Origin: Squalus acanthias
Taxonomy: Eukaryota
NCBI GenBank assembly: GCA_030390025.1
Contig: CM059431.1
Coordinates: 141,672,001 to 141,736,000, forward strand
Direction of reading: 5' to 3'
DNA length: 64,000 nucleotides
In this document: positions 4,101 through 62,953 of the stretch, in pieces
How the letters are laid out: every line of letters starts with the position of its first letter
Numbering within the stretch: the first letter of the stretch is position 1
The notes under the pieces: model-generated
Databases searched by the model: none
The model's input: the letters and a program-made list of their open reading frames with translations, nothing else
What the model was told of the DNA's origin: nothing
Made by a program: the position numbers and the translations under genes

Positions 4101-4379
4101 GGGTGGGGGAATCAGGGACCAAAAAGGAGACCTATGCATGGAAGCAGAGGGTATGGCTGAGGTACTAAATGAGTACTTTGCATCTGTCTGTACCAAGGAA
4201 GAAGATGCTGCCAAAGTCATAGTGAAAGAGGAGATAGCAGAGATACTGGATGGGCTTAGAATTGATAAAGACGAGGTACCAGAAAGACTGGCTGTAATTG
4301 AAGTAGATAAGTAACCAGGACTGGATGGGCTGCATCCTAGGACGCTGAGGGAAATGAAGGAACAAATCGCAGAGGTACT
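1135..4379 (+). mobile_element. CR1 LINE, 5'-complete but 3'-truncated (5'UTR, ORF1 with SGNH esterase, ORF2 endonuclease part), decayed
   Basis: ORF1 starts near 1939 with a Cys-rich start, then GDSIIRG...VCCLPGARVKDV...VVVHIGTND...DGLHLN (SGNH blocks). ORF2 APE motifs CMYVNAR, ETWL, MGDFNYPNIDW and SDH follow, with frameshifts. It stops abruptly after PGLDGLHPRTLREMKEQIAEVL, before the RT core. The 5' boundary is approximate. Confidence 0.9.
1325..1862. repeat. AT-rich 26-bp minisatellite (GTTAATACTATGTTAAATTAGTAACT), ~20 copies, upstream of CR1 ORF1
   Basis: Directly visible tandem units. Confidence 0.95.
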
Positions 4380-5736
4380 CGCCCATCTTCCTTGCTGTGG
4401 GCTTCTCTGAGGAGTTTCAGGATGTCCCCGGGATCTGGAGTCAGGAATTGTGAGAGTGCGGCTACAAACTCTTGGATGGTGAGGTGCGGGAATGTGTACA
4501 CCACGCTCTGGGCAGAATCAGCTCTCTCCAAAAGTTCCATCATGAACCCAGACAGGAACTGGGAAGGTTGCAGATTGTACTTGATCAAATCTCCATTTCT
4601 AAACACAATCTTCTTCTCGGAGACTCCAGTGAAGGCCATCTCACCAAGCTTCAGTAACACATCACGGGGGCTTTCAATCTCTCGACCGTGGTTTTTCAGA
4701 ATGTTGTAGATATAGTAGGAATATAGTTGGGTGATGGTCCTGGGAAGTCGCTGCTGATTCCTGTCTCTTTGTGTAAAGAAGGGACCCAGTGCTAGACCGA
4801 GGATGAAGCAGTAGGAAGGGTTGTAGCTCATGGTGTACAGGATCTCGTTCTCCTCCACGTGTTTGAAAACTGCTGCTGCCACCGTCTGATCTTCAAAATA
4901 CTTGTTGAAATATTCCTTCCGTTCTTCACCAACAAATCCCAGGATTTCAGCCCAGACACGGATCTCAGCCTTTTCCAATAAATGTAATGCAGTGGGGCGG
5001 CTGGTCACTAGCACTGAACATCCTGGGAGCAGCTTGTGCTGTATTAAACTGTACACAATGTCAGACACTTCACACCAGTCCTCGGGATCTGTGCACATGG
5101 ACTGAGGTTCTGTATTTCTCCGATTGTCAGCAAAATCGATACTGTCCTTGAATTCATCCAGCCCATCGAATATAAACAGCAATCCCTCTGGGTTCTTCCA
5201 GAGCTCTCCCAGAATATTCCCAAAGTAAGGATACAGATCCAGTATCAGATTCCTCAGGTTTATTCCACAGTTAATAGCGTTCAAATCCCGGAATTTAAAG
5301 CTGAAAACAAATTGAAAGTGTGGGTATATTTTCCCAGTGGCCCAGTCATGAACAATCTTTTGTACCATTGTTGTTTTTCCAATCCCCGGGACTCCGCTCA
5401 CTGCTGCTGAACTCCCAGAATTGGATTGCCGGAAGAAACTCTGAATTTTCTGGAACAAACCTCCTCTCCGGGAAAAACTGCTCTGGAAAAATTGATCAGT
5501 TCGGATTTTTTCCAGTTCTCCCCGGAGATGTTGCTCTCTCCACTCTTCATGGTCTCGGCCTCTTGCCAGCAGTTCATGTTCTGCAAGTGTCCGATCTCGA
5601 ACAGTAGAAATGACCGTTAGCTCAGCGTATCGATCAACCAGCTGCAAAATCTTAACCTTCTCCTTTATTAGGATAGTGTTCACTCTCAGTGTTTCAGTTT
5701 GTACCCGGAGTGTTTCCTTGTGTTTCTGTTGAACAT
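4337..5736 (-). CDS. NLR-A coding exon 5: NACHT NTPase plus winged helix, truncated in HD2; last ~13 codons and stop come from antisense CR1
   Basis: Acceptor gaag|ATGTTCAA (phase 1, DVQQKHKETL). Motifs: RYAELTVIS, Walker A GVPGIGKTT, Walker B LLFIFDGLDE, VLVTSRP, WAEILGF, YNPSYC, FPHLTIQEFVAA. No internal stops. Confidence 0.93.
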
Positions 5737-6186
5737 CTTCAATTAGAAGAGACAGAAAGTGGTTCTCAATGTTAGTTGTATTGACAAAAAAACAACTTCT
5801 CAACACCCCTTTATTATTCATTGAAATGTTGCAAGTATGAATTTACAGCTTTAATAGACGTGTGTGTAGAAATTAAACTCAGTTAATGGAAACCTGGCCT
5901 TAAAGTGAGCAATGGCTGAGAAAAATTTCAAACCCTCACTTGATTCTAACATTCACTGAAGATGGAGATTACTATGAAGGTGATTTTTTCCCTCTGATGG
6001 TTAATACTGTCCGACCTGCCCTGTGCTATAGAAATCTCATTATAAATCCACACATGATCCTGGTTATATGACAGCAGTGGTTCTAGTGGATCAATATGTG
6101 AAACGGTCAGTGGAGTTTCCCTTCTGCCGCAATGGATTGGTTGCACATCGAGAGGGGCAATGTGCAAAAGATCCACTGTTACTCTA

Positions 6187-6365
6187 TCAGGCCTTGGGCA
6201 GGTTATCTGGGGTAGTGTGGGCACTGGGAGAGGGACAGTCTGTGAATGTACAGAAGTTCCACCGATAGTGTGTCAGGTCCTGGGCAGGTTATCTGGGGTA
6301 GTGTGGGCACTGGGAGAGGGAGACTGTGAAAGGAGAGAACTTCCACCGTTATTGTGTCAGGTCCT
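6187..6365. repeat. ~85-bp tandem duplication (~2 copies), NLR-A intron
   Basis: GGGCAGGTTATCTGGGGTAGTGTGGGCACTGGGAGAGGGA is repeated. Confidence 0.85.
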
Positions 6366-8893: not shown

Positions 8894-8959
8894 CTTTCAG
8901 GTGCATGGGTATTTCGGATAAACCTCGTGCGATGTTCATATAATCAAATGGACTGGAAC
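8894..8959 (-). CDS. NLR-A coding exon 4 (linker, GSSPFDYMNIARGLSEIPMHLK)
   Basis: ttaaacag|GTTCC...CTGAAAG|gtaatt; 66 nt, phase 1/1; keeps frame between exons 3 and 5. Confidence 0.85.
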
Positions 8960-9062: not shown

Positions 9063-9234
9063 CGTGTTCCTGTATTTCTTTCAGTATTTTGTCCAGCTTT
9101 GGTACCCCATGGCGCATTTTCACAAAGGATTCCCACATCACCCTTCGGGCCCTAGAGCCTTTCTCCATCACCAGGTTTAGGAGAAGTTTGGAACTGTCCG
9201 CCCGGTTTCCCTTCTCCACGAGATCAGTGACTTT
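9063..9234 (-). CDS. NLR-A coding exon 3 (C-terminal half of CARD-like death fold)
   Basis: ttacag|AAAGTC...GAACACG|gtacgg; KVTDLVEKGNRADSSKLLLNLVMEKGSRARRVMWESFVKMRHGVPKLDKILKEIQEHG; phase 0/1. Confidence 0.88.
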
Positions 9235-13779: not shown

Positions 13780-16700
13780 GGCATATTAACAGTAATGGGT
13801 AGTGAGCAGGAGGTTGGGATTAGACTAGGTGCGATATTAACGGTAATGGGCAGTGAGCAGGAGGTTGGGATTAGACTAGGTGGGATATTAACAGTAATGC
13901 GTAGTGAGCAGGAGGTTGGGATTAGACTAGGTGGGATATTAACGGTAATGGGCAGTGAGCAGGAGGTGGGGATTAGACTAGGTGGGATATTAACGGTAAT
14001 GGGTAGTGAGCAGGAGGTTGGGATTAGACTAGGTGGGATATTAACGGTAATGGGCAGTGAGCAGGAGGTTGGGATTAGACTAAGTGGGATATTAACAGTA
14101 ATGGTAGTGAGCAGGAGGTTGGGATTAGACTAGGTGTGATATTAACAGTAATGGGTAGTGAGCAGGAGGTTGGGATCAGACTAGGTGGGATATTAACGGT
14201 AATGGGTAGTGAGCAGGGGGTTGGGATTAGATTAGGTGGGATATTAACGGTAATGGGTAGTGAGCAGGAGGTTGGGATTAGACTAGGTGGGATATTAACA
14301 GTAATGGGTAGTGAGCAGGGGGTTGGGATTAGACTAGGTGGGATATTGACGGTAATGGGCAGTGAGCAGGAGGTTGCGATTAGACTAGGTGGGATATTAA
14401 CGGTAATGGGTAGTGAGCAGGAGGTTGGGATTAGACTAGGTGGGATATTGACGGTAATGGGCAGTGAGCAGGGGGTTGGGATTCGACTAGGTGGGGTATT
14501 ACGGTAATGGGTAGTGAGCAGGAGGTTGGGATTAGACTAGGTGGGGTATTAACGGTAATGGGTAGTGAGCAGGAGGTTGGGATCAGACTAGGTGGGATAT
14601 TAACTGTAATGGGCAGTGAGCAGGAGGTTGGGATTAAACTAGGTGGGATATTAACAGTAATGGGCAGTGAGCAGGGGTTGGGATTAGACTAGGTGGGATA
14701 TTAACGGTAATGGGTAGTGAGCAGGAGGTTGGGATTAGACTCGGTGGGATATTAACGGTAATGGGCAGTGAGCAGGAGGTTGGGATTAGACTAGGTGGGA
14801 TATTAACGGTAATGGGTAGTGAGCAGGAGGTTGGGATTAGACTCGGTGGGATATTAACGGTAATGGGCAGTGAGCAGGAGGTTGGGATTAGACTAGGTGG
14901 GATATTAACGGGAATGGGTAGTGAGCAGGAGGTTGGGATTAGGCTAGGTGGGATATTAATGGTAAAGGGTACTGAGCAGGTGGTTGGGATTAGACTAGGT
15001 GGGATATTAACGGAAATGGGGAATGAGCAGGACGTTGGGATTCGGCTAGGTGGGATATTAACGGTAAAGGGTACTGAGCAGGTGGTTGGGATTAGACTAG
15101 GTAGGATATTAACGGTAATGGGTAGTGAGCAGGAGGTTGGGATTAGACTAGGTGGGATATTAACGGAAATGGGCAGTGAGCAGGAGGTTGGGATTAGACT
15201 AGGTGGGTTATTAACAGTAATGGGGAATGAGCAGGAGGTTGGGATTAGACTGGGAGGGATATTAACGGTAAAGGATACTGAGTAGGTGGTTAGGATTAGA
15301 CTAGGTGGGATATTAACGGGAATGGGCAGTGAGCAGGAGTTTGGGATTAGACTAGGTGGGATATTAACGGTAATGGGCAGTGAGCAGGAGATTGGGATTA
15401 GACTAGGTGGGATATTATCAGTAATGGGTTGTGAGCAGGAGGTTGGGATTAGACGAGGAGGGACATTAACAGTATTGGGTAGTGAGCAGAAGGTTGGGAT
15501 TAGACTCGGTGGGATATTAACGGTAATGGGTAGTGAGCAGGAGGTTGGGATTAGACGAGGCGGGATATTAACGGTAATGGGCAGTGAGCAGGAGCTGGTG
15601 ATTAGACTAGGTGTGATATTACCAGTAATGGGTAGTGAGCAGGAGGTTGGGATTAGACTAGGTGGGATATTAACGGTAATGGGTAGTGAGCAGGAGGTTG
15701 GGATTAGACTCGGTGGGATATTAACGGTAATGGGCAGTGAGCAGGAGGTTGGGATTAGACTAGGTGGGATATTAACGGTAATGGGTAGTGAGCAGGAGGT
15801 TGGGATTAGACTCGGTGGGATATTAACGGTAATGGGCAGTGAGCAGGAGGTTGGGATTAGACTAGGTGGGAAATTAACGGGAATGGGTAGTGAGCAGGAG
15901 GTTGGGATTAGGCTAGGTGGGATATTAATGGTAAAGGGTACTGAGCAGGTGGTTGGGATTAGACTAGGTGGGATATTAACGGAAATGGGGAATGAGCAGG
16001 ACGTTGGGATTCGGCTAGGTGGGATATTAACGGTAAAGGGTACTGAGCAGGTGGTTGGGATTAGACTAGGTGGGATATTAACGGTAATGGGTAGTGAGCA
16101 GGAGGTTGGGATTAGACAAGGTGGGATATTAACGGAAATGGGCAGTGAGCAGGAGGTTGGGATTAGACTAGGTGGGTTATTAACAGTAATGGGGAATGAG
16201 CAGGAGGTTGGGATTAGACTGGGAGGGATATTAACGGTAAAGGATACTGAGTAGGTGGTTAGGATTAGACTAGGTGGGATATTAACGGGAATGGGCAGTG
16301 AGCAGGAGTTTGGGATTAGACTAGGTGGGATATTAACGGTAATGGGAAGTGAGCAGGAGATTGGGATTAGACTAGGTGGGATATTAACAGTAATGGGTTG
16401 TGAGCAGGAGGTTGGGATTAGACGAGGAGGGACATTAACAGTATTGGGTAGTGAGCAGGAGGTTGGGATTAGACTCGGTGGGATATTAACGGTAATGGGT
16501 AGTGAGCAGGAGGTTGGGATTAGACGAGGCGGGATATTAACGGTAATGGGCAGTGAGCAGGAGCTGGTGATTAGACTAGGTGTGATATTACCAGTAATGG
16601 GTAGTGAGCAGGAGGTTGGGATTAGACTAGGTGGGATATTAGCGGTAATGGGTAGTGAGCAGGAGGTCGGGATTAGACTAGGTGGGATATTAACAGTAAT

Positions 16701-19700
16701 GGGCAGTGAGCAGGCGGTTGCGATTAGACTAGGTGAGATATTAACGGTAATGGGTAGTGAGCAGGAGGTTGGGATTAGGCTTCGTGGGATATTAACGGTA
16801 ATGGGTAGTGAGCAGGAGGTTGGGATTAGACTAGGTGGGATATTAACAGTAATGGGTAGTGAGCAGGAGGTTGGGATTAGACTAGGTGGGATATTAACGG
16901 TAAAGGGTAGTGAGCAGGAGGTTGGGATTAGACTAGGTGGGATATTAACAGTAATGGGTAGCGAGCAGGAGGTTGGGATTAGACTAGGTAGGATATTAAC
17001 GGTAATGGGCAGTGAGCAGGAGGTTGGGATTAGACTACGTGGGATATTAACAGTAATGGGCAGTGAGCAGGAGGTTGGGATTAGACTAGGTGGGATATTA
17101 ACAGTAATGGGTAGTGAGCAGGGGGTTGGGATTAGATTAGGTGGGATATTAACGGTAATGGGTAGTGAGCAGGAGATTGGGATTAGACTAGGTGGGATAT
17201 TAACAGTAATGGGTTGTGAGCAGGAGGTTGGGATTAGACGAGGAGGGACATTAACAGTATTGGGTAGTGAGCAGGAGGTTGGGATTAGACTCGGTGGGAT
17301 ATTAACGGTAATGGGTAGTGAGCAGGAGGTTGGGATTAGACGAGGCGGGATATTAACGGTAATGGGCAGTGAGCAGGAGCTGGTGATTAGACTAGGTGTG
17401 ATATTACCAGTAATGGGTAGTGAGCAGGAGGTTGGGATTAGACTAGGTGGGATATTAGCGGTAATGGGTAGTGAGCAGGAGGTCGGGATTAGACTAGGTG
17501 GGATATTAACAGTAATGGGCAGTGAGCAGGCGGTTGCGATTAGACTAGGTGAGATATTAACGGTAATGGGTAGTGAGCAGGAGGTTAGGATTAGGCTTCG
17601 TGGGATATTAACGGTAATGGGTAGTGAGCAGGAGGTTGGGATTAGACTAGGTGGGATATTAACAGTAATGGGTAGTGAGCAGGAGGTTGGGATTAGACTA
17701 GGTGGGATATTAACGGTAAAGGGTAGTGAGCAGGAGGTTGGGATTAGACTAGGTGGGATATTAACAGTAATGGGTAGCGAGCAGGAGGTTGGGATTAGAC
17801 TAGGTAGGATATTAACGGTAATGGGCAGTGAGCAGGAGGTTGGGATTAGACTACGTGGGATATTAACAGTAATGGGCAGTGAGCAGGAGGTTGGGATTAG
17901 ACTAGGTGGGATATTAACAGTAATGGGTAGTGAGCAGGGGGTTGGGATTAGATTAGGTGGGATATTAACGGTAATGGGTAGTGAGCAGGAGGTTGGGATT
18001 AGACTAGGTGGGATATTAACAGTAATGGGTAGTGAGCAGGGGGTTGGGATTAGACTAGGTGGGATATTGACGGTAATGGGCAGTGAGCAGGAGGTTGCGA
18101 TTAGACTAGGTGGGATATTAACGGTAATGGGTAGTGAGCAGGAGGTTGGGATTAGACTAGGTGGGATATTGACGGTAATGGGCAGTGAGCAGGGGGTTGG
18201 GATTCGACTAGGTGGGGTATTACGGTAATGGGTAGTGAGCAGGAGGTTGGAATTGGACTTGGTGGGATATTAACGGTAATGGGCAGTGAGCAGGAGGTTG
18301 GGATTAGACTAGGTGGGATATTAACCGGAATGGGTAGTGAGCAGGAGGTTGGGATTAGACTAGGTGGGATATTAACGGTAATGGGCAGTGAGCAGGAGGT
18401 TGGGATTAGACTAGGTGGGATATTAATAGTAATGGGTACTGAGCAGGAGGTTGGGATTAGACTAGGTGTGATATTAACGGTTATGGGTAGTGAGCAGCAG
18501 GTTGGGATTAGACTAGGTGGGATATTAACGGAAATGGGGATGAGCAGGAGGTTGGGATTAGGCTAGGTGGGATATTAATGGTAAAGGGTACTGAGCAGGT
18601 GGTTGGGATTAGACTAGGTGGGATATTAACGGAAATGGGGAATGAGCAGGAGGTTGGGATTCGGCTAGGTGGGATATTAACGGTAAAGGGTACTGAGCAG
18701 GTGGTTGGGATTAGACTAGGTGGGATATTAACGGTAATGGGTAGTGAGCAGGAGGTTGGGATTAGACTAGGTGGGATATTAACGGAAATGGGCAGTGAGC
18801 AGGAGATTGGGATTAGACTAGGTGGGATATTAACAGTAATGGGGAATGAGCAGGAGGTTGGGATTAGACTGGGAGGGATATTAACGGTAAAGGATACTGA
18901 GTAGGTGGTTAGGATTAGACTAGGTGGGATATTAACGGGAATGGGCAGTGAGCAGGAGTTTGGGATTAGACTAGGTGGGATATTAACGGTAATGGGCAGT
19001 GAGCAGGAGATTGGGATTAGACTAGGTGGGATATTAACGGTAAAGGGTAGTGAGCAGGAGGTTGGGATTAGACTAGGTGGGATATTAACAGTAATGGGTA
19101 GCGAGCAGGAGGTTGGGATTAGACTAGGTAGGATATTAACGGTAATGGGCAGTGAGCAGGAGGTTGGGATTAGACTAGGTATGATATTAACAGTAATGGG
19201 TAGTGAGCCGGGGGTTGGGATTAGATTAGGTGGGATATTAACGGTAATGGGTAGTGAGCAGGAGGTTGGGATTAGACTAGGTGGGATATTAATAGTAATG
19301 GGTAGTGAGCAGGGGGTTGGGATTAGACTAGGTGGGATATTGACGGTAATGGGCAGTGAGCAGGAGGTTGCGATTAGACTAGGTGGGATATTAACGGTAA
19401 TGGGTAGTGAGCAGGAGGTTGGGATTAGACTCGGTGGGATATTAACGGTAATGGGCAGTGAGCAGGAGGTTGGGATTAGACTAGGTGGGATATTAACGGG
19501 AATGGGTAGTGAGCAGGAGGTTGGGATTAGGCTAGGTGGGATATTAATGGTAAAGGGTACTGAGCAGGTGGTTGGGATTAGACTAGGTGGGATATTAACG
19601 GAAATGGGGAATGAGCAGGACGTTGGGATTCGGCTAGGTGGGATATTAACGGTAAAGGGTACTGAGCAGGTGGTTGGGATTAGACTAGGTAGGATATTAA

Positions 19701-22700
19701 CGGTAATGGGTAGTGAGCAGGAGGTTGGGATTAGACTAGGTGGGATATTAACGGAAATGGGCAGTGAGCAGGAGGTTGGGATTAGACTAGGTGGGTTATT
19801 AACAGTAATGGGGAATGAGCAGGAGGTTGGGATTAGACTGGGAGGGATATTAACGGTAAAGGATACTGAGTAGGTGGTTAGGATTAGACTAGGTGGGATA
19901 TTAACGGGAATGGGCAGTGAGCAGGAGTTTGGGATTAGACTAGGTGGGATATTAACGGTAATGGGCAGTGAGCAGGAGATTGGGATTAGACTAGGTGGGA
20001 TATTAACAGTAATGGGTTGTGAGCAGGAGGTTGGGATTAGACGAGGAGGGAGATTAACAGTATTGGGTAGTGAGCAGGAGGTTGGGATTAGACTCGGTGG
20101 GATATTAACGGTAATGGGTAGTGAGCAGGAGGTTGGGATTAGACGAGGCGGGATATTAACGGTAATGGGCAGTGAGCAGGAGCTGGTGATTAGACTAGGT
20201 GTGATATTACCAGTAATGGGTAGTGAGCAGGAGGTTGGGATTAGACTAGGTGGGATATTAACGGTAATGGGTAGTGAGCAGGAGGTTGGGATTAGACTCG
20301 GTGGGATATTAACGGTAATGGGCAGTGAGCAGGAGGTTGGGATTAGACTAGGTGGGATATTAACGGTAATGGGTAGTGAGCAGGAGGTTGGGATTAGACT
20401 CGGTGGGATATTAACGGTAATGGGCAGTGAGCAGGAGGTTGGGATTAGACTAGGTGGGAAATTAACGGGAATGGGTAGTGAGCAGGAGGTTGGGATTAGG
20501 CTAGGTGGGATATTAATGGTAAAGGGTACTGAGCAGATGGTTGGGATTAGACTAGGTGGGATATTAACGGAAATGGGGAATGAGCAGGACGTTGGGATTC
20601 GGCTAGGTGGGATATTAACGGTAAAGGGTACTGAGCAGGTGGTTGGGATTAGACTAGGTGGGATATTAACGGTAATGGGTAGTGAGCAGGAGGTTGGGAT
20701 TAGACAAGGTGGGATATTAACGGAAATGGGCAGTGAGCAGGAGGTTGGGATTAGACTAGGTGGGTTATTAACAGTAATGGGGAATGAGCAGGAGGTTGGG
20801 ATTAGACTGGGAGGGATATTAACGGTAAAGGATACTGAGTAGGTGGTTAGGATTAGACTAGGTGGGATATTAACGGGAATGGGCAGTGAGCAGGAGTTTG
20901 GGATTAGACTAGGTGGGATATTAACGGTAATGGGAAGTGAGCAGGAGATTGGGATTAGACTAGGTGGGATATTAACAGTAATGGGTTGTGAGCAGGAGGT
21001 TGGGATTAGACGAGGAGGGACATTAACAGTATTGGGTAGTGAGCAGGAGGTTGGGATTAGACTCGGTGGGATATTAACGGTAATGGGTAGTGAGCAGGAG
21101 GTTGGGATTAGACGAGGCGGGATATTAACGGTAATGGGCAGTGAGCAGGAGCTGGTGATTAGACTAGGTGTGATATTACCAGTAATGGGTAGTGAGCAGG
21201 AGGTTGGGATTAGACTAGGTGGGATATTAGCGGTAATGGGTAGTGAGCAGGAGGTCGGGATTAGACTAGGTGGGATATTAACAGTAATGGGCAGTGAGCA
21301 GGCGGTTGCGATTAGACTAGGTGAGATATTAACGGTAATGGGTAGTGAGCAGGAGGTTGGGATTAGGCTTCGTGGGATATTAACGGTAATGGGTAGTGAG
21401 CAGGAGGTTGGGATTAGACTAGGTGGGATATTAACAGTAATGGGTAGTGAGCAGGAGGTTGGGATTAGACTAGGTGGGATATTAACGGTAAAGGGTAGTG
21501 AGCAGGAGGTTGGGATTAGACTAGGTGGGATATTAACAGTAATGGGTAGCGAGCAGGAGGTTGGGATTAGACTAGGTAGGATATTAACGGTAATGGGCAG
21601 TGAGCAGGAGGTTGGGATTAGACTACGTGGGATATTAACAGTAATGGGCAGTGAGCAGGAGGTTGGGATTAGACTAGGTGGGATATTAACAGTAATGGGT
21701 AGTGAGCAGGGGGTTGGGATTAGATTAGGTGGGATATTAACGGTAATGGGTAGTGAGCAGGAGGTTGGGATTAGACTAGGTGGGATATTAACAGTAATGG
21801 GTTGTGAGCAGGAGGTTGGGATTAGACGAGGAGGGACATTAACAGTATTGGGTAGTGAGCAGGAGGTTGGGATTAGACTCGGTGGGATATTAACGGTAAT
21901 GGGTAGTGAGCAGGAGGTTGGGATTAGACGAGGCGGGATATTAACGGTAATGGGCAGTGAGCAGGAGCTGGTGATTAGACTAGGTGTGATATTACCAGTA
22001 ATGGGTAGTGAGCAGGAGGTTGGTATTAGACTAGGTGGGATATTAGCGGTAATGGGTAGTGAGCAGGAGGTCGGGATTAGACTAGGTGGGATATTAACAG
22101 TAATGGGCAGTGAGCAGGCGGTTGCGATTAGACTAGGTGAGATATTAACGGTAATGGGTAGTGAGCAGGAGGTTGGGATTAGGCTTCGTGGGATATTAAC
22201 GGTAATGGGTAGTGAGCAGGAGGTTGGGATTAGACTAGGTGGGATATTAACAGTAATGGGTAGTGAGCAGGAGGTTGGGATTAGACTAGGTGGGATATTA
22301 ACGGTAAAGGGTAGTGAGCAGGAGGTTGGGATTAGACTAGGTGGGATATTAACAGTAATGGGTAGCGAGCAGGAGGTTGGGATTAGACTAGGTAGGATAT
22401 TAACGGTAATGGGCAGTGAGCAGGAGGTTGGGATTAGACTACGTGGGATATTAACAGTAATGGGCAGTGAGCAGGAGGTTGGGATTAGACTAGGTGGGAT
22501 ATTAACAGTAATGGGTAGTGAGCAGGGGGTTGGGATTAGATTAGGTGGGATATTAACGGTAATGGGTAGTGAGCAGGAGGTTGGGATTAGACTAGGTGGG
22601 ATATTAACAGTAATGGGTAGTGAGCAGGGGGTTGGGATTAGACTAGGTGGGATATTGACGGTAATGGGCAGTGAGCAGGAGGTTGCGATTAGACTAGGTG

Positions 22701-41067: not shown

Positions 41068-41243
41068 CACCGGGAGACACCGGCTTTAAACAGGGAGATT
41101 AAAGTTAGACCCTGGAAACAGGCTGCACCGGGAGACACCGGCTTTAAACAGGGAGATTAAAGTTAGACCCTGGAAACAGGCTGCACCGGGAGACACCGGC
41201 TTTAAACAGGGAGATTAAAGTTAGACACTGGACACCGGCTGCA
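41068..41243. repeat. 58-bp tandem repeat x3
   Basis: CACCGGGAGACACCGGCTTTAAACAGGGAGATTAAAGTTAGACCCTGGAAACAGGCTG; resembles 40171-40210. Confidence 0.9.
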
Positions 41244-45907: not shown

Positions 45908-46525
45908 GTCGTCTTCTTAGGCAGTCCCTCGGAACCAAGGATGACTTGCTTCCACATTAAAAATGAGTTCACAGGTGACTGATGAGTCCAATGCGGACCT
46001 ACAGTCTCTGTCACAGGTGGGGCAGATGGTGGTTGAAGGGGCAGTTGGGTGGGATGCTTGGGTTGACGTGCGCTCCTTGCGCTGCCTGCGCTTGCTCCCG
46101 GCGAAGAGACTCGAGGTATTCGGCGCCTTCCCGGATGCTTCTCCTCCACTTTGTGCTGTCTTGGGCCAGGGATTCCCAGGTTTCGGTGGGGATGTTACAC
46201 TTTTTCAAGGATGCTTTGAGAGTGTCCTTGAAGCGTTTCCTCTGCCCACCTGGGGCTCTCTTGCCGTGCCGGAGCTTCGAGTAGAGCGCTTGTTTTGGGA
46301 GTTTCGTATCGGGCATGCGGACAATGTGACCCGTCCATCGGAACCGATCGAGCGTGGTCAAAGCTTCGATGCTGGGGATGTTGGCCTGAGCGAGAACACT
46401 GATGTTGGTGCGCCTATCCTGCCAATGGATTTGCAGGATCTTGTGGAGGCAGCGTTGGTGGTACCTCTCCAGTGCTTTGAGTTGCCTACTGTACATGGTC
46501 CATGTCTCTGAAGCATACAGCAAGC
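45908..46525 (-). mobile_element. RTE-clade LINE 3' fragment in a Myb gene intron
   Basis: LLYASETWT...ERYHQRCLHKILQIHWQDRRTN...RWTGHIVRMPDTKLPKQ...GGQRKRFKD. Confidence 0.88.
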
Positions 46526-47406
46526 TCAGGTGCCTGGATAATGAAGTCACTTGACTACACACATGCATTGAATAGCTTTTTAAAACTAGTTCAGTTAAAT
46601 TTAAAGAAATATTACAGTTGACTTTTCTAATAACTGTACGAACCTTGACAGATCGCAATAAATCACTAAATTTCTTGTGGCATTGTTCCGCTGTCCGTGT
46701 AATGGTGGAGTTCGCGCTGACAGCCTGGGCTACTCTCACCAAGCTATCATCTGTCCTTTGCGCGGCGCCCTGGAATTCTCATTCCCAATGATCCACAGGC
46801 GCTTCGCCTCAACCTCATTGAGGAGTGTGCTGAGGACATCGTCACTGAAATTCTGAGTTCTCTTATTGATGTGAATTGTGCTCATTCCAGCCATTTCACT
46901 TTGCTGATTAAATAAAATGAATGAAAAAAATGCTTTCAGGGCTTTAAAAACTCTTTAAATTGCTTCAAATCTCTTTAAAACTATTTAAGATCCTTCCAAT
47001 CCATGTAAAAGTCTTTAAAAGTTTCTAAAAGTTAGCAAAAGATTCATAAAAATACAAAGAACCTACTTACCATGCTGTTCTGCATCTACCAAAGCTTTGG
47101 ATCATCTGAAAAAAGTCAGGGGCGTGGCCTATGCAAATGCAACTTCTGAGGGCGGGTCTCCCCTACCCTCCGCGCCGGAGGATCCGCGCACACTGCGCTC
47201 CTGGGCGGTGTGACGTCAGACGCTGCCCGGGAGTCCTCTTCATTAAAACCGAATTCCACGCGGGCCCAGAGCACAAAGGTCGGCGCGTTTCTAAAGTGCA
47301 GGTCGGGGGCTTGTGTCCGCGGGACGCCTCCGACCAGAATTTACCTGGACCCGCAGATTCTCCCTTTCCGTGTGCAGCCTGCCAGTTCTGACTTTGCAAA
47401 CTCATT

Positions 47407-47997
47407 GGCCCAGAAATTCGGGTCGGAGGCTTCCCGCGGGTGCAAGCATAGCGGGTGCACTTACCTAGAGCGCCTGCCGTTGTGCTGTGGGCCCGCGTGG
47501 GATTCCGATCCTGGGCCTCCTCCAGCTGCCGGCGCTAAGTGCTCACGTATCCCAGAGGCGCAGTTAGTTCAAAGACCTGTCAAATCTATGAATAGAGATC
47601 GGCCCCAAAACCGCACTTAAACTTAAAATTAATTACCGTTTTTAATGGGGCTAAAAATAAACTTACCTTTCTTTAAAGTATTTAAAAGTAATAAACCTGT
47701 GGAAAAAATGTTTTAATTTTACTTAATTCACCTCTTACCTTGTTAAAGGCAGGCCTTGCGCCTGCTTTTTCCCCGCGCAGCTGCTCGGGACTGACCCGCA
47801 CGGAGAAACCTGTAAAAAAATCGGAAGTTCCAGGTCTACGCGCTGCCTCTCCGTCACCCGCATTTGACCTGTGAACCCCTTCCTTCAAGGGAACGGAAGT
47901 TCCAGTTTCCAGTGCATGCGCAAAACCGGCACTTTCGTTGGGTCTACGGGTGAGTACACAGCGCGTACTCACCCGTGGAGACCCGAATTTCTGGCCC
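47407..47997 (-). mobile_element. Harbinger-family MITE 2 with 18-bp TIRs and 3-bp TSD (ATT)
   Basis: att|GGCCCAGAAATTCGGGTC ... GACCCGAATTTCTGGCCC|att; one mismatch between TIRs. Confidence 0.92.
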
Positions 47998-48464
47998 ATT
48001 GCCACCAATCAGGAGGCTGTTCCTGGTTTTCTTCCTGCCAATCACAGTTTGGTAATTGGAGCTGATCCTTGTTATTTGAGATTTGAGCCAATCTCCGCCC
48101 TCTGACTGGATGCTGCTGTTTCAAAATACTCATCGAACCGATTTGATAACTCATTTAACTATGAACAAAGTGAGTTAGAAACAATTCTTTATGAAGTATT
48201 AACCCAATAAAAGAGACCCAGCTCTAGGAATGAATTGTAACGCCTCTATCTGGGTCTTTATGAACCGTTCCACGGATTCCCTGATGTTTGATCTTTCAGA
48301 CCAACAGCTCAGAGCCAGTGTCTGGTGTTTCAGTGCGGGGAGGGCGAGCCGCCTCGAAGGCCCAACACATTAACCATTTAACTGCTGAATGACGGTGTCC
48401 TTGAATGGGGAGGAAATGATGTCTCCATGGTCACTTCTCTCCTGTGACTGGATGGTATTCAGTG

Positions 48465-48870
48465 CCGCTCCCTGTTCACCCATCACCCCTGTGCTCACTG
48501 ACCTACATTGGCTCCCGGTCCAGCAACGCCTCGATTTTAAAGTTCTCATCCATGGCCTCACTTCTCCCTATCTCGGTAACCTCCTCCAGCCCAACAACCC
48601 TCCGAGATCTCTGCGCTCCTACAATTCTGGTCTCTTGTACATTCCCAATTTCCTTCATAACTCCATTGGCCATCAAGTGCCTAGGCCCTAATCTCTGGAA
48701 TTCCCTCTCCACCTCTCTCTCCTCCTTTAAGACTGTCTTTAAAACCTCCCTCTGTCAACAAGCATTTGGTCACCTGTCCGAATATCTCCTTACGTGACTT
48801 GGAGTCAATGATTTTTCAGATTACGCTCGAGACATTTTAATTCATTAAAGGATCTACATAAATTTCAATT
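48465..48870 (+). mobile_element. L2-clade 3' fragment
   Basis: SPITPVLTDLHWLPVQQRLDFKVL...PRSLRS...LWNSL. Confidence 0.85.
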
Positions 48871-48904
48871 TTTGTTCTGAGACAGTGAAGTGAAAGGGAG
48901 CGGA

Positions 48905-51630
48905 TTAGACCGAGACAGAGGGTGGTTCAGTCTGAGAGAGGGGGTGGTTCAGTCTGAGACAGAGGGTGGTTCAGTCTGAGAGAGGGGACGGTTCAGTCCG
49001 AGACAGAGGGTGGTTCAGTCTGAGAGAGGGAACGGTTCAGTCTGAGAGAGGGGACGGTTCAGTCTGAGAGAGGGGGGATTCAGTCTGAGAGAGGGAACGG
49101 TTCAGTCCGAGAGAGGGGACGGTTCAGTCTGAGAGAGGGGGCAGTTCAGACTGAGAGAGGGGGTGGTTCAGTCTGAGAGAGGGGGCGGTTCAGTCTGAGA
49201 GAGGGGACGGTTCAGACTGAGATAGGGGGCAGTTCAGTCTGAGAGAGGGGGTGGTTCAGTCTGAGAGAGGGGGCGGTTCAGTGTGAGAGAGGGGACGGTT
49301 CAGTCTGTGAGAGGGAACGGTTCAGACTGAGAGAGGGGGCGGTTCAGTCTGAGAGAGGGGGCGGTTTAGACTGAGAGAGGGGAGGGTTCAGTCTGAGAGA
49401 GGGGACGGTTCAGTCTGAGAGAGGGGACGGTTAAGTCTGAGAGAGGGGACGGTTCTGTCTGAGAGAGGGGACGGTTCTGTCTGAGAGAGGGACGGTTCAG
49501 ACTGAGAGAGGGGACGGTTCAGTCTGAGAGAGGGGACGGTTCAGTCTGAGAGAGGGGACGGTTCAGTCTGAGAGAGGGGGGGTTCAGTCTGAGAGAGGGG
49601 GGTTCAGTCTGAGAGAGGGGACGGTTCAGTCTGAGAGAGGGGACGGTTCAGTCTGAGAGAGGGTCGGTTCAGTCTGAGAGAGGGGGGGGGTTCAGTCTGA
49701 GAGAGGGGGGTTCAGTCTGAGAGAGGGTCGGTTCAGTCTGAGAGAGGGGGCGGTTCAGTCTGAGAGAGGGGGGTTCAGTCTGAGAGAGGGGGCAGTTCAG
49801 TCTGAAAGAGAGGGTGGTTCAGTCTGAGAGAGGGGGCGGTTCAGTCGGAGAGAGTTGGCGGTTCAGTCTGAGAGAGGGGTGGTTCAGTCTGAGAGAGGGG
49901 ACGGTTCAGTCTGAGAGAGGGGGCAGTTCAGTCTGAGAGAGAGGGTGGTTCAGACAGAGAGGGGACGGTTCAGTCTGAGAGAGGGTGGTTCAGTCTGAGA
50001 GAGGGGACGGTTCAGTCTGAGAGAGGGGACGGTTCAGTCTGAGAGAGGGGGGGTTCAGTCTGAGAGAGGGGGGGTTCAGTCTGAGAGAGGGGACGGTTCA
50101 GTCTGAGAGAGGGGACGGTTCAGTCTGAAAGAGGGAAGGTTCAGTCTGAGAGAGAGGGGGGTTCAGTCTGAGAGAGGGGGGTTTCAGTCTGAGAGAGGGG
50201 ACGGTTCAGTCTGAGGGGACGGTTCAGTCTGAGAGAGGGGACCGTTCAGTCTGAGAGAGGGGGGGTTCAGTCTGAGAGAGGGGACGGTTCAGTCTGAGAG
50301 AGGGGGGGGTTCAGTCTGAGAGAGGGGTGGGTTCAGTATGAGAGAGGGGACGGTTCAATCTGAGAGAGGGGACGGTTCAGTCTGAGAGAGGGGGCAGTTC
50401 AGTCTGAGAGAGGGGACGGTTCAGTCTGAGAGAGGTGGGGTTCAGTTTGAGAAAGTGGACGGTTCAGTCTGAGAGAGGGAACGCTTCAGTGTGAGAGAGG
50501 GGGCGGTTCAGTCTGAGAGAGGGGGCGGTTCAGTCTGAGAGAGGGGGCGGTTCAGTCTGAGAGAGGGGGCGGTTCAGTCTGAGAGAGGGGACCGTTCAGC
50601 CTGAGAGAGGGGATGGTTCAGTCTGAGAGAGGGGGCGGTTCAGTCTGAGAGAGGCGTGGTTCAGTCTGAGAGAGGCGTGGTTCAGTTTGAGAGAGGGGGG
50701 GATTCAGTCTGAGAGAGAGGGTGGTTCAGACTGAGCGATGGGACGGTTCAGTCTGAGAGAGGGGACGGTTCAGTCTGAGAGGGGGCGGTTCAGTCTGAGA
50801 GAGGGGACGGTTCAGTCTGAGAGGGGCGGTTCAGTCTGAGAGAGGGGACGGTTCAGTCTGAGAGGGGCGGTTCAGTCTGAGAGAGGGGACGGTTCAGTCT
50901 GAGGGGACGGTTCAGTCTGAGAGAGTGGACGGTTCAGTCTGAGAGAGGGAACGGTTCAGTCTGAGAGAGTGGACGGTTCAGTCTGAGAGAGGGAACGATT
51001 CAGTCGGAGAGAGGGGGGGTTCAGTCTGAGAGAGTGGACGGTTCAGTCTGAGAGAGGGGACGGTTCAGTCTGAGGGGACGGTTCAGTTTGAGAGAGGGGA
51101 CGGTTCAGTCTGAGAGGGGGGGGTTCAGTCTGAGAGAGGGGACGGTTCAGTCTGAGAGAGGGGACGGTTCAGTCTGAGAGGGGGGGTTCAGTCTGAGAGA
51201 GGGGACGGTTCAGTCTGAGAGAGGGGGGGTTCAGTCTGAGAGAGGGGGGGTTCAGTATGAGAGAGGGGACGGTTCAATCTGAGAGAGAGGACGGTTCACT
51301 CTGAGAGAGGGGGCAGTTCAGACTGAGAGAGGGGACGATTCAGTGTGAGAGAGGGGGGGTTCAGTCTGAGAGAGTGGACGGTTCAGTCTGAGAGAGGGAA
51401 CTGTTCAGTCTGAGAGAGTGGACGGTTCAGTCTGAGAGAGGGGACGATTCAGTCTGAGAGAGGGGGGGTTCAGTCTGAGAGAGTGGACGGTTCAGTCTGA
51501 GAGAGGGGACGATTCAGTCTGAGAGAGGGGACGGTTCAGTCTGAGAGAGGGGCGGTTCAGTCTGAGAGAGGGGACGATTCAGTCTGAGAGAGGGGGCAGT
51601 TCAGTCTGAGAGAGGGGGCGGTTCAGACTG
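48905..51630. repeat. 22-bp G-rich minisatellite (GGTTCAGTCTGAGAGAGGGGAC), ~120 copies
   Basis: Visible tandem units. Confidence 0.96.
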
Positions 51631-51875
51631 ACAGAGTGAGGGATTCACCAGTGCTGTGAGATAAGACTCACTGTTAATACTGCAGGAGTGGGACCAGTAC
51701 CAGCACTGACAGAGTGAGGGATTCACCAGTGCTGTGAGATAAGACTCACTGTTAATACTGCAGGAGTGGGACCAGTACCAGCACTGACAGAGTGAGAGAT
51801 TCACCAGTGCTGTGTGATAAGGCTCACTGTTAATACTGCAGGAGTGGGTCCAATCCCAGCTCTGACAGAGTGAGG
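51627..51875. repeat. 78-bp tandem repeat x3
   Basis: ACTGACAGAGTGAGGGATTCACCAGTGCTGTGAGATAAGACTCACTGTTAATACTGCAGGAGTGGGACCAGTACCAGC. Confidence 0.9.
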
Positions 51876-51889
51876 TATTCCTTGAGAGT

Positions 51890-52363
51890 GAGTCTGGCGC
51901 AGGCGCACTGGGAGTGACCCCCGACACTCAGGAACGGCAGCCGCTGTGGGAGAAGCTATGACGTCATCCGCGCTCGTACTGAAGCGGTTGAAAGGCCGCG
52001 CGGGAGGACATGTCAGGAGACACGTGACTCCGGCCCGACAGCGGCACTTCAGCACAGTGGGCGGGGCCCTGTGGCGGTCCGGGCTCCCATTGGTTGTATG
52101 CGGCAGTCAATCTATGAGTCGCACCCAATAGAAGAGACGAGCTCAGTGATCGACGTTATTTATTGCTCTTGTGGACACTGTGGCCGCAGTGCGCATGCTC
52201 GGTACTGACCCCACCCCAGTCTGGACCCCGGAGGAAGTAAAATTCCTTGAGGAAGAAACGGTCCCGGAGATAAAATGGCCGAGTTACCGGGGAGCGCTGG
52301 GAACCGGACTGAGGAGTGGCGGATGGAGCCGGATCAGAGACTGGGCGGGCGGCGATGGTGCGG
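51890..52363 (+). promoter_or_regulatory. CpG-rich promoter and first exon, probably of NLR-B
   Basis: NRF1-like GCGCAGGCGCA (~51897), CRE TGACGTCA (51959), E-box CACGTG (52021), GC box (52059), CCAAT boxes (52089 reverse, 52125), TGCGCATGC (52190), YY1-like AAAATGGCCG (52272), donor CGG|gtgagt (52364). Confidence 0.75.
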
Positions 52364-52811
52364 GTGAGTTTGGGGATCAGAGAATCACAGAGATTTACAG
52401 CACAGAAGGAGTCTTGTCCCCGCCGGCCGACAGAGAGCGATCCTCCCCAGGCCCACTTTCCAGCTCCTTCAGAACATCAGGAGCAGGAGTGGGTGACCCG
52501 GCCCCGAGCCTGCTCCAATTGCCCTCACTCCCCTCCCTCCCTCCCCCCCGCCTCTGCCCCCTCCTGTTTCATTTTTTGTCCACCCCAGTCCAACAGCGGC
52601 ATCTCAGACACACACGTTACCGAAGTAGAACAACACCGGTCAAAGCAAGCAGGGAATGTGCTTCCAAAATCAACGTCCGAGAAACAGCGACCATCAGATT
52701 CCCAGTGTATTCTGAAATGGTAAGAACCCAAAACAAGTAAAACACAGAATATAGTCTGAAATGGGAATGAGTAATATTAGAAATAAAAGCTGAAAATGCT
52801 GGAAACACTCC

Positions 52812-59983: not shown

Positions 59984-60079
59984 AGCATCATAATCTGGGA
60001 ACGCCTGTCACCGCCATGGCTGAAGGTCCAATCAGGGGAGAAGATCCAACATCTTCAACAAGAATGAGAATGGACACAG
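59984..60079 (+). CDS. NLR-B ATG exon (MAEGPIRGEDPTSSTRMRMDT; ATG at 60016)
   Basis: ttacag|AGCATC acceptor, strong Kozak CCGCCATGG, donor GACACAG|gtaaga; paralogue of 29704-29799. Confidence 0.88.
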
Positions 60080-60509
60080 GTAAGAACAACACAATATTAT
60101 TTACAATATAATTTCTGTTCTGACAAAGGGTCCAGATCTCGTGCAAGAACCTCCAGCTCACACAGGTCGAGGGAACAGGACAGGGGCTGATTAGAAAGAG
60201 GGAAGTGAGTGACCATCTAGAGAGGCATCACAGTCACAGGTGGAGGGAGCCCCCGAATACTGGAACTGTCCAATAGATGGGGACTGTAAGGTGGATGGAG
60301 ACAGTGACTCAGAGGATTGTCTTCCTGAGCAATAGTTTGAAGCCAGGGAGCAGTAGGTCACCCCGAGTGAGCCGAGGGTGAGAGGAGAATGATAGAAATA
60401 TCTGATTCCAGAGGGAAGAACATCTTTGAACGGCTGTGACCTTTTCTGTGAAGGCAAGAAGAGCAGAAAATTGTCCCGGTCAAAACCAAAAACACAACTA
60501 GAAATACAT

Positions 60510-61900
60510 TTAAAAAATAATTTTCGGGACTTGAGTGTCACTGGCAAGGCCCCCATTTATTGCCCACACCAAGTTGTCATTGAATAGATGATGGTGGGCC
60601 ACGTTCTTGAATCGCTGCAGTCCATGTGGTGAAGGTGCTCCCACAGTGCTGTTAGGTAGGGAGTTCCAAGGTTTTGATCCAGTGACAATGAAGGAGAGGT
60701 GCTGTATGTCCAAGTTAGGGTTGTATGTGACATTAGGAGAACTTGGAAGCGAAGGTATTCCCACGCACCTGGTGTCCTTGTCCTTCTAGGTGGTGGATGT
60801 CGTGGGTATGGGAGGTGCTGTCGAAGATGCCTTGCCAACTTACTGGAGAGCATCCAGTAGACAGTAATCTGCAACCACGGTAAGCCAATGGTGGAGGGAG
60901 TCAATGTTTAACCCAATGGATGGGGTGCTGATCAAGCATAATGCTTTGTCCTGGATGGTGTTGAGCATCTTCAGTGTTGTTGCAACTTCACTTGTCCAGA
61001 CAAATGGAAAGTGTTCCATCACTCTCCTGACGTGTGCTGTAGGTGGGGGAGAGAATTTGGGGAGTCACGAGGTGAGCCACTCGCCACAGAATACCCAGCC
61101 TCTGACCTGCTCCCGTAGACACGGGGGATGTATGTGGCTGGTCCAGTTCTATTCTGTTTTATGTGGGGGAATTGTTGATAATGTCATTGACTGTCATGGC
61201 ATATGGCAATGGTATCTCTGGTTGGAGATGGTCATTGCCTGACCCTGGGAACGGTAGCGTAGTGGTAATGTCACTGGGCTAGTAATCCAGAGGCCTGGAC
61301 TAATGATTCAGAGACGTGAGTTCAAATCCCACCACGGCAGCTGGGGACTTAAATAAATCTGGAATAAAAAGCTAGAATCAGTAATGGTAACCATGAAACT
61401 ATCGGATTGTCGTTAAAAACCCATCTGGTTCACTAATGTCCTTTTAGGGAAGGAAATATGCCGTCCGTACCTGGTCTGGCCTGTATGTGACTCCAGACCC
61501 ACAGCAATGTGGTTGATCTTAACTGCCCTCTGAAATGGCCTAGCAAGCCACTCAGTTGTAACTAACCGCTACGAAACAAAATACCATCACCACACGGACT
61601 GCAGCGGTTCAAGAAGGCGGCTCACCACCACCTTCTCAAGGGCAACTTGGGATGGGCAATAAATGCTGGCCTTGCCAGCGATGCCCAGATCCCATAAAAG
61701 GAATAAAAAAAACTTGTCTGGTTCGAATATAATTTGCCACATATCAGGCCAAAACTGGATGTTATCCACGTATTGCTGCAAGCAGGCATGGACTGCTTCA
61801 TGAATGGGGCCGAACAAACTGCAACCATCAGCGAGCAGCCCCACCTCTAACCTTATGATGGAGCGAAGGTCACTGATGAAGCAGCTGGAAGTAGTTGAGT
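60510..61900 (-). mobile_element. Decayed LINE 3' part (same family as 10.3-12.0 kb), interrupted by a SINE
   Basis: MEHFPFVWTSEVATTLKMLNTIQDKA, KPWNSLPNSTVGAPSPHGLQRFK, LQQYVDNIQFWPDMWQIIFEP. Confidence 0.75.
61245..61712 (+). mobile_element. Full-length tRNA-derived SINE with LINE-derived tail
   Basis: A box GGTAGCGTAGTGG, B box GAGTTCAAATCC, tail CAGCGGTTCAAGAAGGCGGCTCACCACCACC...AATAAATGCTGGCCTTGCCAGCG, A-rich end. Confidence 0.85.
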
Positions 61901-62786
61901 CTCGGATGCTGGCCTGGTTTGAGGCCTATATTGAGGGAATTTAAAGTCAGGCAATGGAATGTAAAACAAAGCATCAAGGTGGTGATCTCTGGCTGTAGGG
62001 TGGGGGCGGGGTGGTTAAAATGGAATTAGGTTCAAGGCCAGTGGATAATACAAAAAGTCAGGGTTTATGAAAAGTAAAGCAATAATTCAAGGTTCTATCA
62101 CTGGGGATGAAGGGAGAATCTAATTGTGGAGGATGATGTTTTAAGGAGGTATCAAACATTTCCAATAGTTTCTAAAAATGATGGTGGTGGTGGTGCGAGA
62201 AGGTGGACTAGAGGAGGATGTGGGATCATAGTTGGAGTTAAATGTAGGGAAGGATTTGGAGCTGAAAAAGTAGCCAAGATGGGTAAGTGACTGGGCCCAG
62301 AGATAACACACTCCAGGCTGTTAAATCAAATCACAGAGGAGGGAGGACAGACTCTCCACAATTGTTCAATCTGTTTTAGATTTAAACAATACACTGGAGC
62401 ACTGAAGGAGCCCAAGTAACGTCTCTGTTCAACAATGGAGGAGAGAGGATAAACCGGGTAACTAGAACAGTCTACGGCAGTTATGGGCAGAATGCTCGAG
62501 TCCGGAATTTAAGGTTGAATTAGTGAATGTTGAGATACAGGGGATGATCAGGGGAGGCTGGAACCGACTAACTGTAGGCAAGATGTGTTTGACAAATTTG
62601 CACGCTTTTTTTAAAGAATGGACTATATAGATCGATGGGATGCAGCATCTGCGGTGTATATGTAGTTTAAGAAGGTGTTTGATAATGCGGCTCACAGGAG
62701 GTTTCAGCTGTTTGGTATAAGAGGCAATGTAGCAGCTTGGATATAAAGTGGATAATGAGTTTAATTTTCTCCATTTGTGTTCACAG

Positions 62787-62953
62787 ATCCGAACTCTACA
62801 ATCACTGAGTTCTTGACAGAGTGCAACGATTACCAGCTGTTCCAGTTGACGAAATTCTACCGGGACCGACTGGAACAGGCGATTGAAGGAGGGGTGGACG
62901 GAGTCAGCTCGTTGTTAACATACGAGTGGCATTTCAGTGGACAAGAACATCGG
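62787..62953 (+). CDS. NLR-B coding exon 2 (CARD-like death fold, N-terminal half); gene continues beyond the window
   Basis: gttcacag|ATCCG...CATCGG|gtaagt; 160/167 nt identical to NLR-A exon 2. Confidence 0.9.

Follow-up and report, generated by a model that had tools for sequence, protein, structure and literature searches.

Expanded NLR genes are known from sharks, where they form lineage-wise clades, a pattern that has been read as concerted or birth-and-death evolution (Tan et al., 2021, PMC8455134, excerpt); their NCBI models carry the automatic name "NACHT, LRR and PYD domains-containing protein 3-like", as do P0026 and P0001 from Heptranchias. In zebrafish, hundreds of paralogous NLR-B30.2 (NLR-C) genes are clustered, pseudogenes among them, and gene conversion homogenises parts of the genes (Howe et al., bioRxiv 10.1101/022061, excerpt). 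The NLRP genes of human chromosome 19q13.4 are likewise vertebrate NLR paralogs lying adjacent after local duplication (PMC2735741, excerpt). Functional head-to-head NLR pairs are described in plants, e.g., RPS4/RRS1, RGA4/RGA5 and Pik-1/Pik-2; in the validated pairs from some hundreds up to some thousands of nucleotides are shared, one member carries an integrated domain and the two come mostly from different clades, exceptions allowed (PMC9528088, excerpt). The literature that we searched for vertebrate head-to-head NLR pairs, which largely excluded subscription papers, yielded none.

We have analyzed a 64-kb stretch of the Squalus acanthias genome (the window) in which two NLR paralogs, gene A on the minus strand and gene B on the plus strand, lie head-to-head and point apart across 20.5 kb, as self-BLASTN of the whole window indicates. 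This is the divergent orientation around a spacer of about 20 kb that the initial annotation had described. By exon plan and protein matches, A and B are members of a high-copy shark CARD-NACHT-LRR (NLRP-related) family, and they share the exon plan of the expanded shark NLRs mentioned above. We consider it likely that they are ordinary neighbours, products of gene birth, death and sequence exchange, and not a functional pair. Their parts within the window are as follows.

4380..5736, minus strand: gene A NACHT exon with linker, NBD, HD1 and WHD (Pfam NACHT, E 4.7e-37; NOD2_WH, E 3.5e-13)
8894..8959, minus strand: gene A coding exon 4, 66 nt
9063..9234, minus strand: 172-nt coding exon 3 of gene A, encoding the predicted CARD's second half (fold taken from a homologue)
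13783..25599, no strand: 51-bp tandem array of about 232 copies, within the 17-kb intron that splits gene A's predicted CARD
26356..26522, minus strand: 167-nt coding exon 2 of gene A, encoding the predicted CARD's first half
29704..29799, minus strand: gene A coding exon 1, 32-nt leader plus 64 nt, ATG at 29767
31988..32099, minus strand: gene A 112-nt leader exon, internal (acceptor and donor), family-wide
52608..52719, plus strand: gene B 112-nt leader exon
59984..60079, plus strand: gene B coding exon 1, 32 plus 64 nt, ATG at 60016
62787..62953, plus strand: 167-nt coding exon 2 of gene B, encoding the predicted CARD's first half, the remainder of the gene lying beyond the window

Exon 2 of gene B is matched by 134 proteins and the end of gene A's NACHT exon by 379, all those listed coming from sharks or rays. 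With loose patterns, the 55-codon span of exon 2 is kept in 104 of 120 listed models, and that of exon 1 in 77 of the 82 whose start can be recognised; the basking-shark model P0103 takes in the 112-nt leader exon (E 1e-9). The NACHT exon of gene A is 86-92% identical to the best 40 models, and the whale-shark model P0070 is among the matches with 76% over exon 2. Thirteen of the 16 Heterodontus models matching gene B exon 2 (some of them isoforms) apparently share one 74.9-Mb contig, which suggests that the family clusters. In the window no further NLR can be seen, and a local cluster is therefore not established here. A tblastn search with eight full-length relatives found the first two coding exons alone of gene B in the window; its naming as a NACHT gene therefore holds by homology and not directly, the NACHT lying outside. 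Gene B is probably an ordinary full-length receptor and would sense through its LRRs, oligomerise through its NACHT and signal through its CARD.

The N-terminus of the homologue P0056 was modelled (mean pLDDT 76.6), and its best VIA match was the NLRC4 CARD (Z 11.8, rmsd 2.8, 89 aligned), with a designed protein also at Z 11.2 and death domains at Z 7.5 or below. The top Foldseek rows were CARDs, none reaching E 0.001. Pfam gave no CARD, PYD or death domain match, so the "death fold" ascribed to these genes found its backing, as a CARD, in the modelled homologue and none in Pfam. The automatic PYD label would accordingly be corrected to a CARD, the fold that this model, which is of a relative and not of the window's own protein, gives for the family N-terminus.

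The colinear inverted homology that had been noted was recovered by self-BLASTN as seven blocks, with E-values from 1e-10 to 0 (gene A side/gene B side).

25982-26689/63325-62621: inverted block, 81% identity
27684-28158/62599-62113: inverted block, 71%
29183-29281/60512-60402: inverted block, 71%
29392-29930/60385-59858: inverted block, 83%
29928-30176/59214-58900: inverted block, 77-80%
30982-31655/55397-54699: inverted block, 84-85%
31887-32105/52817-52602: inverted block, 91%

The first three exons of both genes, of 112, 96 and 167 nt, are covered together with patches of intron. The 96-nt exon consists of 32 non-coding and 64 coding nucleotides, and the phases and flanking AG/GT sites of the 96- and 167-nt exons agree between A and B, confirming the identical lengths (32+64 and 167 nt) and phases reported before. 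The 112-nt exon (A 32099-31988; B 52608-52719) is an extra, third shared exon further upstream. We rejected it as coding in the main frame, as direct splicing places a stop upstream of the ATG. Of 6.1 kb in A and 10.7 kb in B, about 2.5 kb can be aligned, which makes the homology patchy. In the regions upstream of this exon, blastn with word size 7 found no A/B homology; since it stops there, the spacer is not a mirror image. The two genes could not be haplotypes of one gene, given a divergence of 4-26% and kilobases of insertions.

It had been proposed that the pair was formed by inverted duplication. The paralogy is certain, and the derivation of one copy from the other is not established, the exon plan being family-wide, the introns mosaic and the two genes showing no special closeness. 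Among 109 homologues, A and B share 68 of 77 amino acids (88%), A and P0004 also 68, B and P0001 69, and B and P0010 68; the resemblance between A and B thus does not exceed that of either gene to Heptranchias paralogs. Across nine A/B intron blocks, the divergence ranges from 6.1 to 25.9% over 2143 aligned bases (chi-square 104, 8 df, p 5e-19), and two repeat relics shared at matching intron positions differ by 6.7% and 24.2%. The synonymous difference is 2 of 49 sites versus an intron mean of 15.3% (p 0.014). This mosaic is not the uniform age expected from one duplication, with the caveat that splice-site constraint and the choice of blocks by BLAST could explain part of it. In a NACHT tree of 108 sequences, the groups are largely species-wise and there are no one-to-one orthologues. 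An A plus B clade appeared in 0% of 200 bootstrap trees and the AU test (p 0.39) did not reject a sister relationship, these trees using 51 of 93 rows (window, Pristiophorus, Heptranchias and Heterodontus) and only 77 columns, which resolve little. That A and B are direct products of one mutual duplication is, on this evidence, less likely than not.

Gene A ends in a repeat.

4337..4379, minus strand: antisense CR1 stretch that supplies a tail of 13 residues and the stop codon of gene A
1900..4379, plus strand: CR1-type LINE with ORF1 and endonuclease pieces, left boundary approximate, very high summed depth

The NACHT exon, with Walker A and B intact, breaks at the first residues of HD2, and the LINE is cut off at this joint, where its RT region begins. 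The spliced frame amounts to 622 aa without LRRs, of which 609 family-derived codons are free of stops and frameshifts, and the splice sites are intact. No HD2 or LRR motif occurs in the six frames of the window, which makes gene A a truncated member that, compared with the shark NLRP-related family, lacks HD2 and the LRRs. A clean LINE insertion was discarded as an explanation because the element has no 3' part and HD2 never resumes. The break is covered by 223 of 233 fetched relatives (the 120 best of 134 matches and the 120 best of 379), 222 of which continue for at least 37 residues; none of the 233 ends at the break or carries the tail. Ten of 120 listed family models end before HD2, at differing positions, and an RNA-like contig departs from the window at 4379 and goes on as HD2.

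Against the same-species majority letters, gene A has eight non-synonymous and six synonymous differences (dN/dS about 0.38), which does not suffice to reject neutrality (p 0.07-0.17). Of 256 conserved NACHT columns it departs at 6, the median of 107 homologues being 3, and at this level the sequence gives no clear indication of decay. Only these 14 listed letters in about 1.35 kb set it apart from the species majority, so that an open frame would be expected even if the gene were dead. Like NLRP10 and engineered NLRC4 and NLRP3 deletions, gene A is without LRRs and matches death-fold-NBD-HD1-WHD truncations. NLRP10 is a conserved gene that retains HD2. Gene A, unlike it, has a break that none of the fetched relatives shares, and its end lies in LINE sequence.

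These data bear on whether gene A could be an expressed CARD-NBD-HD1-WHD protein acting alone, either a de-repressed signaller or a decoy joining any family oligomers, with gene B incidental. The open frame, the intact splice sites and Walker motifs and the dN/dS value point in this direction, as do the raised IL-1beta release after HD2 deletion in mouse NLRC4 and the example of NLRP10 without LRRs (PMC7583971, excerpt). However, the truncation is absent from all the fetched relatives, the few differing letters would leave the frame open in any case, no AATAAA or ATTAAA lies within 2.4 kb past the stop, and NLRP3 cut to PYD-NBD-HD1-WHD, the equivalent truncation, was inactive (PMC6281599, excerpt). 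We regard a stand-alone protein as unlikely, and gene A as probably a young disabled copy. Two runs guessed to be RNA, with 4 of 24 runs aligned to 1900-7390, are deep over the NACHT exon, and at most listed A-specific sites their whole depth carries the other letter; such contigs are dominated by paralogs, lose rare variants and cannot separate gene A from its paralogs.

The chance outcome of cluster turnover, put forward before as a fallback, thus fits best, given the family-wide exon plan, the absence of special closeness and the mosaic introns. In this reading of A and B as ordinary neighbours, the family template would be the source of their shared exons; an older duplication and inversion, followed by conversion or recombination among family copies, may have produced the uneven divergence; and a recent deletion-type event may have joined the NACHT exon of gene A to the middle of a LINE, with loss of HD2 and the LRRs, stops having probably not yet accumulated. 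The zebrafish NLR-C genes would be comparable in their many paralogs and pseudogenes, although they belong to another clade and have another N-terminus and a B30.2 domain; the account of them makes no use of the term "orientation". With random strands, one quarter of adjacent pairs is expected to be head-to-head by simple arithmetic. In the human cluster NLRP2/NLRP7, NLRP11/NLRP4 and NLRP13/NLRP8 are divergently oriented, and the arrangement of A and B would therefore be unremarkable in vertebrates. As read here the locus matters little, a known shark expansion gaining two members; it is a tidy case of mosaic paralog exchange, and of a LINE joint removing the repressive half of an NLR.

The region between the genes bears on a functional pairing.

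32100..52607, no strand: 20.5-kb spacer without A-B mirror homology, holding tandem arrays of 61 and 22 bp, CR1 pieces and Harbinger elements
40250..40330, minus strand: candidate for a distant first exon of gene A, with a strong donor near 40250 and a CCAAT box upstream
~40390-41060: short Harbinger-related element
41248..47999, plus strand: Harbinger with long inverted ends 41275-41476/47960-47759 (85%) and nested LINE pieces
51890..52363, plus strand: stretch rich in CpG, candidate for gene B's promoter and first exon, with a donor near 52364

Repeats make up about 86% of the spacer with hand-drawn boundaries. The Harbinger announced there is real, its transposase ORF at 42014-43171 matching DDE_Tnp_4 (E 1.8e-42). 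The promoters also placed there are present as candidates near 40.3 and 52.2 kb, not as established promoters; positions 52001-52500 have a GC of 0.60 and a CpG o/e of 0.77. Neither candidate exon could be tied convincingly to NLR models through the N-terminal extensions of 156 proteins, a look-alike search found nothing, scans for interferon, NF-kB, ETS and NRF1 motifs revealed no telling pattern, and ARAGORN and Rfam had no matches. The candidate first exons are 12.1 kb apart, about 1.3 kb of it non-repeat, and the two starts may thus once have been close.

In a plant-style unit, A and B would be co-regulated as regulator and effector from a once-compact two-way promoter, the truncated A tuning or priming a full-length B through CARD and NACHT contacts. 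They share the head-to-head arrangement of the plant pairs; only about 1.3 kb of non-repeat sequence, Harbinger elements and tandem arrays being disregarded, separates the candidate first exon near 40,250 on the minus strand from that near 52,363 on the plus strand; exon 2 of gene B has no deviation at 20 conserved columns; and Pi5-1/Pi5-2 probably arose by recent duplication (PMC9528088, excerpt). Yet the spacer is long and repeat-filled, with 12 kb between the candidate starts, the upstream regions are not homologous, and nothing ties the 40.3-kb exon to gene A. In contrast with the plant pairs, A and B are near-identical members of one subfamily, no integrated domain is seen in gene A (most of B being outside the window). 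The protein data give no sign that the pair is conserved, there being no one-to-one orthologues in the family tree and no relative among the 233 with A's truncation. The regulator/effector idea gained no positive support, and we consider it very unlikely. We would give equally little credit to a vertebrate NLR pair in the making, with CARD-NLR starts once about 1-1.5 kb apart, spread by Harbinger elements and a tandem array, and the LINE-truncated A as a primed or decoy subunit of B. Should a pair reading hold, vertebrates, in parallel to plants, would also have evolved linked NLR logic of the sensor/helper style, and a natural NLR without HD2 would be available for testing at this locus.

Finally, the joint between NACHT exon and CR1, or the inversion itself, might be an assembly error among near-identical copies, since the joint unites two very high-copy sequences (summed depths from thousands to hundreds of thousands). 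Over the NACHT exon the summed depth is about 7,000-45,000, versus about 11-17 for exact intron pieces in sample X1, which indicates very many copies and is not usable as a copy number. No piece among those listed (32 of 26,743 pieces, with 24 of 362 loose ends and 15 of 27 joints) bridges position 4380, which is evidence neither way. We find such an error highly improbable: the window holds no N, A and B differ by too much in sequence and insertions to be two haplotypes, and unique intron stretches of gene A match contigs exactly in two DNA samples (X1: 5764-5877, 6568-6697 and 7112-7206; X5: 7245-7356).

The head-to-head arrangement of the two NLR paralogs is real. Self-comparison of the window recovered, where the initial annotation had placed them, the colinear inverted blocks (71–91% identity), and we consider it very unlikely that an assembly error produced the arrangement or the NACHT-CR1 junction. 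The exons of gene A and their counterparts in gene B, which exits the window after coding exon 2, are the following:

32099-31988, minus strand, gene A leader exon (112 nt)
29799-29704, minus strand, gene A coding exon 1
26522-26356, minus strand, gene A coding exon 2
9234-9063, minus strand, gene A coding exon 3
8959-8894, minus strand, gene A coding exon 4
starting at 5736, minus strand, gene A NACHT exon
52608-52719, plus strand, gene B leader exon, counterpart of that of A
59984-60079, plus strand, gene B coding exon 1, counterpart of that of A
62787-62953, plus strand, gene B coding exon 2, counterpart of that of A

Spliced together, the coding exons of gene A amount to 622 codons, and no further gene B exons were found in the window by tblastn with eight full-length relatives as queries. 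An acceptor-like site between leader exon and coding exon 1 is kept in both genes (30060, minus; 59068, plus) and may belong to an optional leader exon; sequence reading identified no donor common to A and B for it.

The NACHT and winged helix of gene A and the Harbinger transposase of the spacer were confirmed by Pfam. The death fold claimed for the N-terminus obtained no Pfam match, and what stands is a CARD-like fold in the structure model of the homologue P0056, built on a 66-sequence alignment. The top match of this model was the NLRC4 CARD (Z 11.8, rmsd 2.8, 89 residues), with death domains scoring lower (Z 7.5 and below). As CARDs fit the model best and also come first in the Foldseek ranking (no match below E 0.001), the domain is a predicted CARD, divided between exons 2 and 3. 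The intron dividing it in gene A contains 51-bp units that are repeated over 11.8 kb (13783-25599) and show higher-order structure; reading frames within this array are open for up to 1449 codons. In the NACHT exon, 12 residues are inserted directly before Walker A (window 5419-5470); this insertion, present also in the Heptranchias proteins P0001 and P0025 and missing from other same-species contigs, identifies either a subfamily or a loop of variable length.

Our tests do not single out A and B as a special pair. They are identical at 68 of the 77 residues visible in both, the same figure as for A and Heptranchias P0004, while B shares 69/77 with Heptranchias P0001 and 68/77 with Pristiophorus P0010. 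An A+B clade appeared in 0% of 200 bootstrap trees and the AU test did not reject their sisterhood (p 0.39; both with 51 of 93 rows and 77 columns). The equal exon lengths, cited earlier alongside an origin by inverted duplication, are, judging from the family models, a trait of the whole family: by loose patterns the exon-2 span is kept in 104/120 models and the exon-1 span in 77/82, and the leader-exon sequence is read into the basking-shark model P0103.

One inverted duplication should leave a uniform level of divergence. Over nine intron blocks, A and B differ by 6.1% to 25.9% (heterogeneity p 5e-19). The divergence is 6.7% and 24.2% for two repeat relics common to both, assigned by eye to L2-like and CR1-like elements, and only 2 of 49 synonymous sites differ vs. 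an intron mean of 15.3% (p 0.014). This unevenness of introns, relics and synonymous sites points to exchange among family copies, and not to one inverted duplication alone; splice-site constraint and the choice of blocks by BLAST may account for part of the mosaic. A similar exchange among copies is described for zebrafish NLRs (10.1101/022061).

The 55-residue exon of gene B had 134 protein matches; the best 120 examined were all shark or ray proteins, most of them named 'NACHT, LRR and PYD domains-containing protein 3-like'. The end of the gene A NACHT exon had 379 (best 120 examined). Paralogs cluster largely by species in a tree built from 108 NACHT regions, where A is sister to the seven Pristiophorus sequences (support 0.85). 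The DNA accordingly comes from a shark, probably one of the squalomorphs. Most likely, A and B are members of the expanded NLRP-related family that was described in the whale shark by Tan et al., who interpret it as concerted or birth-death evolution (PMC8455134). Two automatic family models from Mustelus carry extra Pfam domains (PF00644 in P0154, PF02485 in P0093); these may have been integrated into the genes or may come from fused gene models.

We consider it likely that A and B are neighbours left by cluster turnover, in a probably ordinary arrangement. On random strands, one quarter of neighbours are head-to-head, and we assume that the human NLRP cluster includes divergently oriented pairs, a point for which literature searching gave no confirmation. 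Tandem location is all that the accessible text of PMC2735741 states. Of the traits of plant paired NLRs, the orientation is the only one seen in A and B, and no publication on vertebrate head-to-head NLR units was found in an incomplete coverage of the literature.

That gene A is functional on its own seems unlikely to us. Where relatives carry on into HD2, it enters an antisense CR1 and meets a stop 13 residues later; an RNA-like contig that departs from the window at 4379 carries the HD2 continuation. Because the 3' part of this LINE is missing and HD2 was not found to resume in the window beyond the break, we infer a deletion-type junction and do not favour an insertion. Among 233 relatives compared, 223 align at the break, 222 have at least 37 further residues and none has the 13-residue tail; of the family models (best 120 of 134), 10 end before the break, at varied points. 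A degenerate tRNA-like stretch at about 270-340 (minus strand), not called by ARAGORN or Rfam, presumably resembles tRNA-Asn. The sequence of gene A gives no clear sign of decay. Of 256 conserved NACHT columns it deviates at 6, against a median of 3 among homologues, and of 42 conserved N-terminal columns at 2. Against same-species majority letters there are 8 non-synonymous and 6 synonymous differences (dN/dS ~0.38, p 0.07-0.17). With listed differences of only ~1%, a live gene and a recently dead one would both be expected to keep the frame open. Known proteins give opposite hints for a form without HD2: HD2 deletion activates NLRC4 (PMC7583971), whereas NLRP3 shortened to PYD-NBD-HD1-WHD is inactive (PMC6281599).

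The A-B homology stops at the leader-exon acceptor. This acceptor is present on both leader exons, so the true starts lie further inward in the 20.5 kb spacer, ~86% of which, with boundaries drawn by hand, consists of tandem arrays, CR1 pieces and Harbinger elements. The candidates are:

near 52,363, plus strand, donor at the end of a CpG-rich stretch, gene B candidate start
near 32,213, minus strand, weak candidate donor of gene A
near 40,250, minus strand, strong candidate donor of gene A

Only 1,315 of the 12,110 bases between the far candidates (near 40,250 for A and near 52,363 for B) are non-repeat, the sole result favouring a once-compact two-way promoter, but nothing found ties the 40.3-kb candidate exon to gene A, and a co-regulated pair is very improbable.

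Upstream of A is a 61-bp tandem array (32638-34084 and 36194-36462), whose translated unit gives the six first residues of the Heptranchias models P0025 and P0026, the best NACHT matches of A by identity; it may be a subfamily 5' feature common across shark orders, a six-residue match being weak. The Harbinger (41248-47999) has long inverted ends and an open 385-codon transposase frame, and a short related element adjoins it (40390-41060). Its ORF pieces at 43698-44126 and 45000-46800 may be a second, putatively Myb/SANT-like gene disrupted by LINE insertions. Short direct repeats of 83-86% (40322-40368 / 48042-48089; 40170-40210 / 41064-41243) flank and interleave these elements beside CCAAT boxes, and may be duplicated promoter modules.
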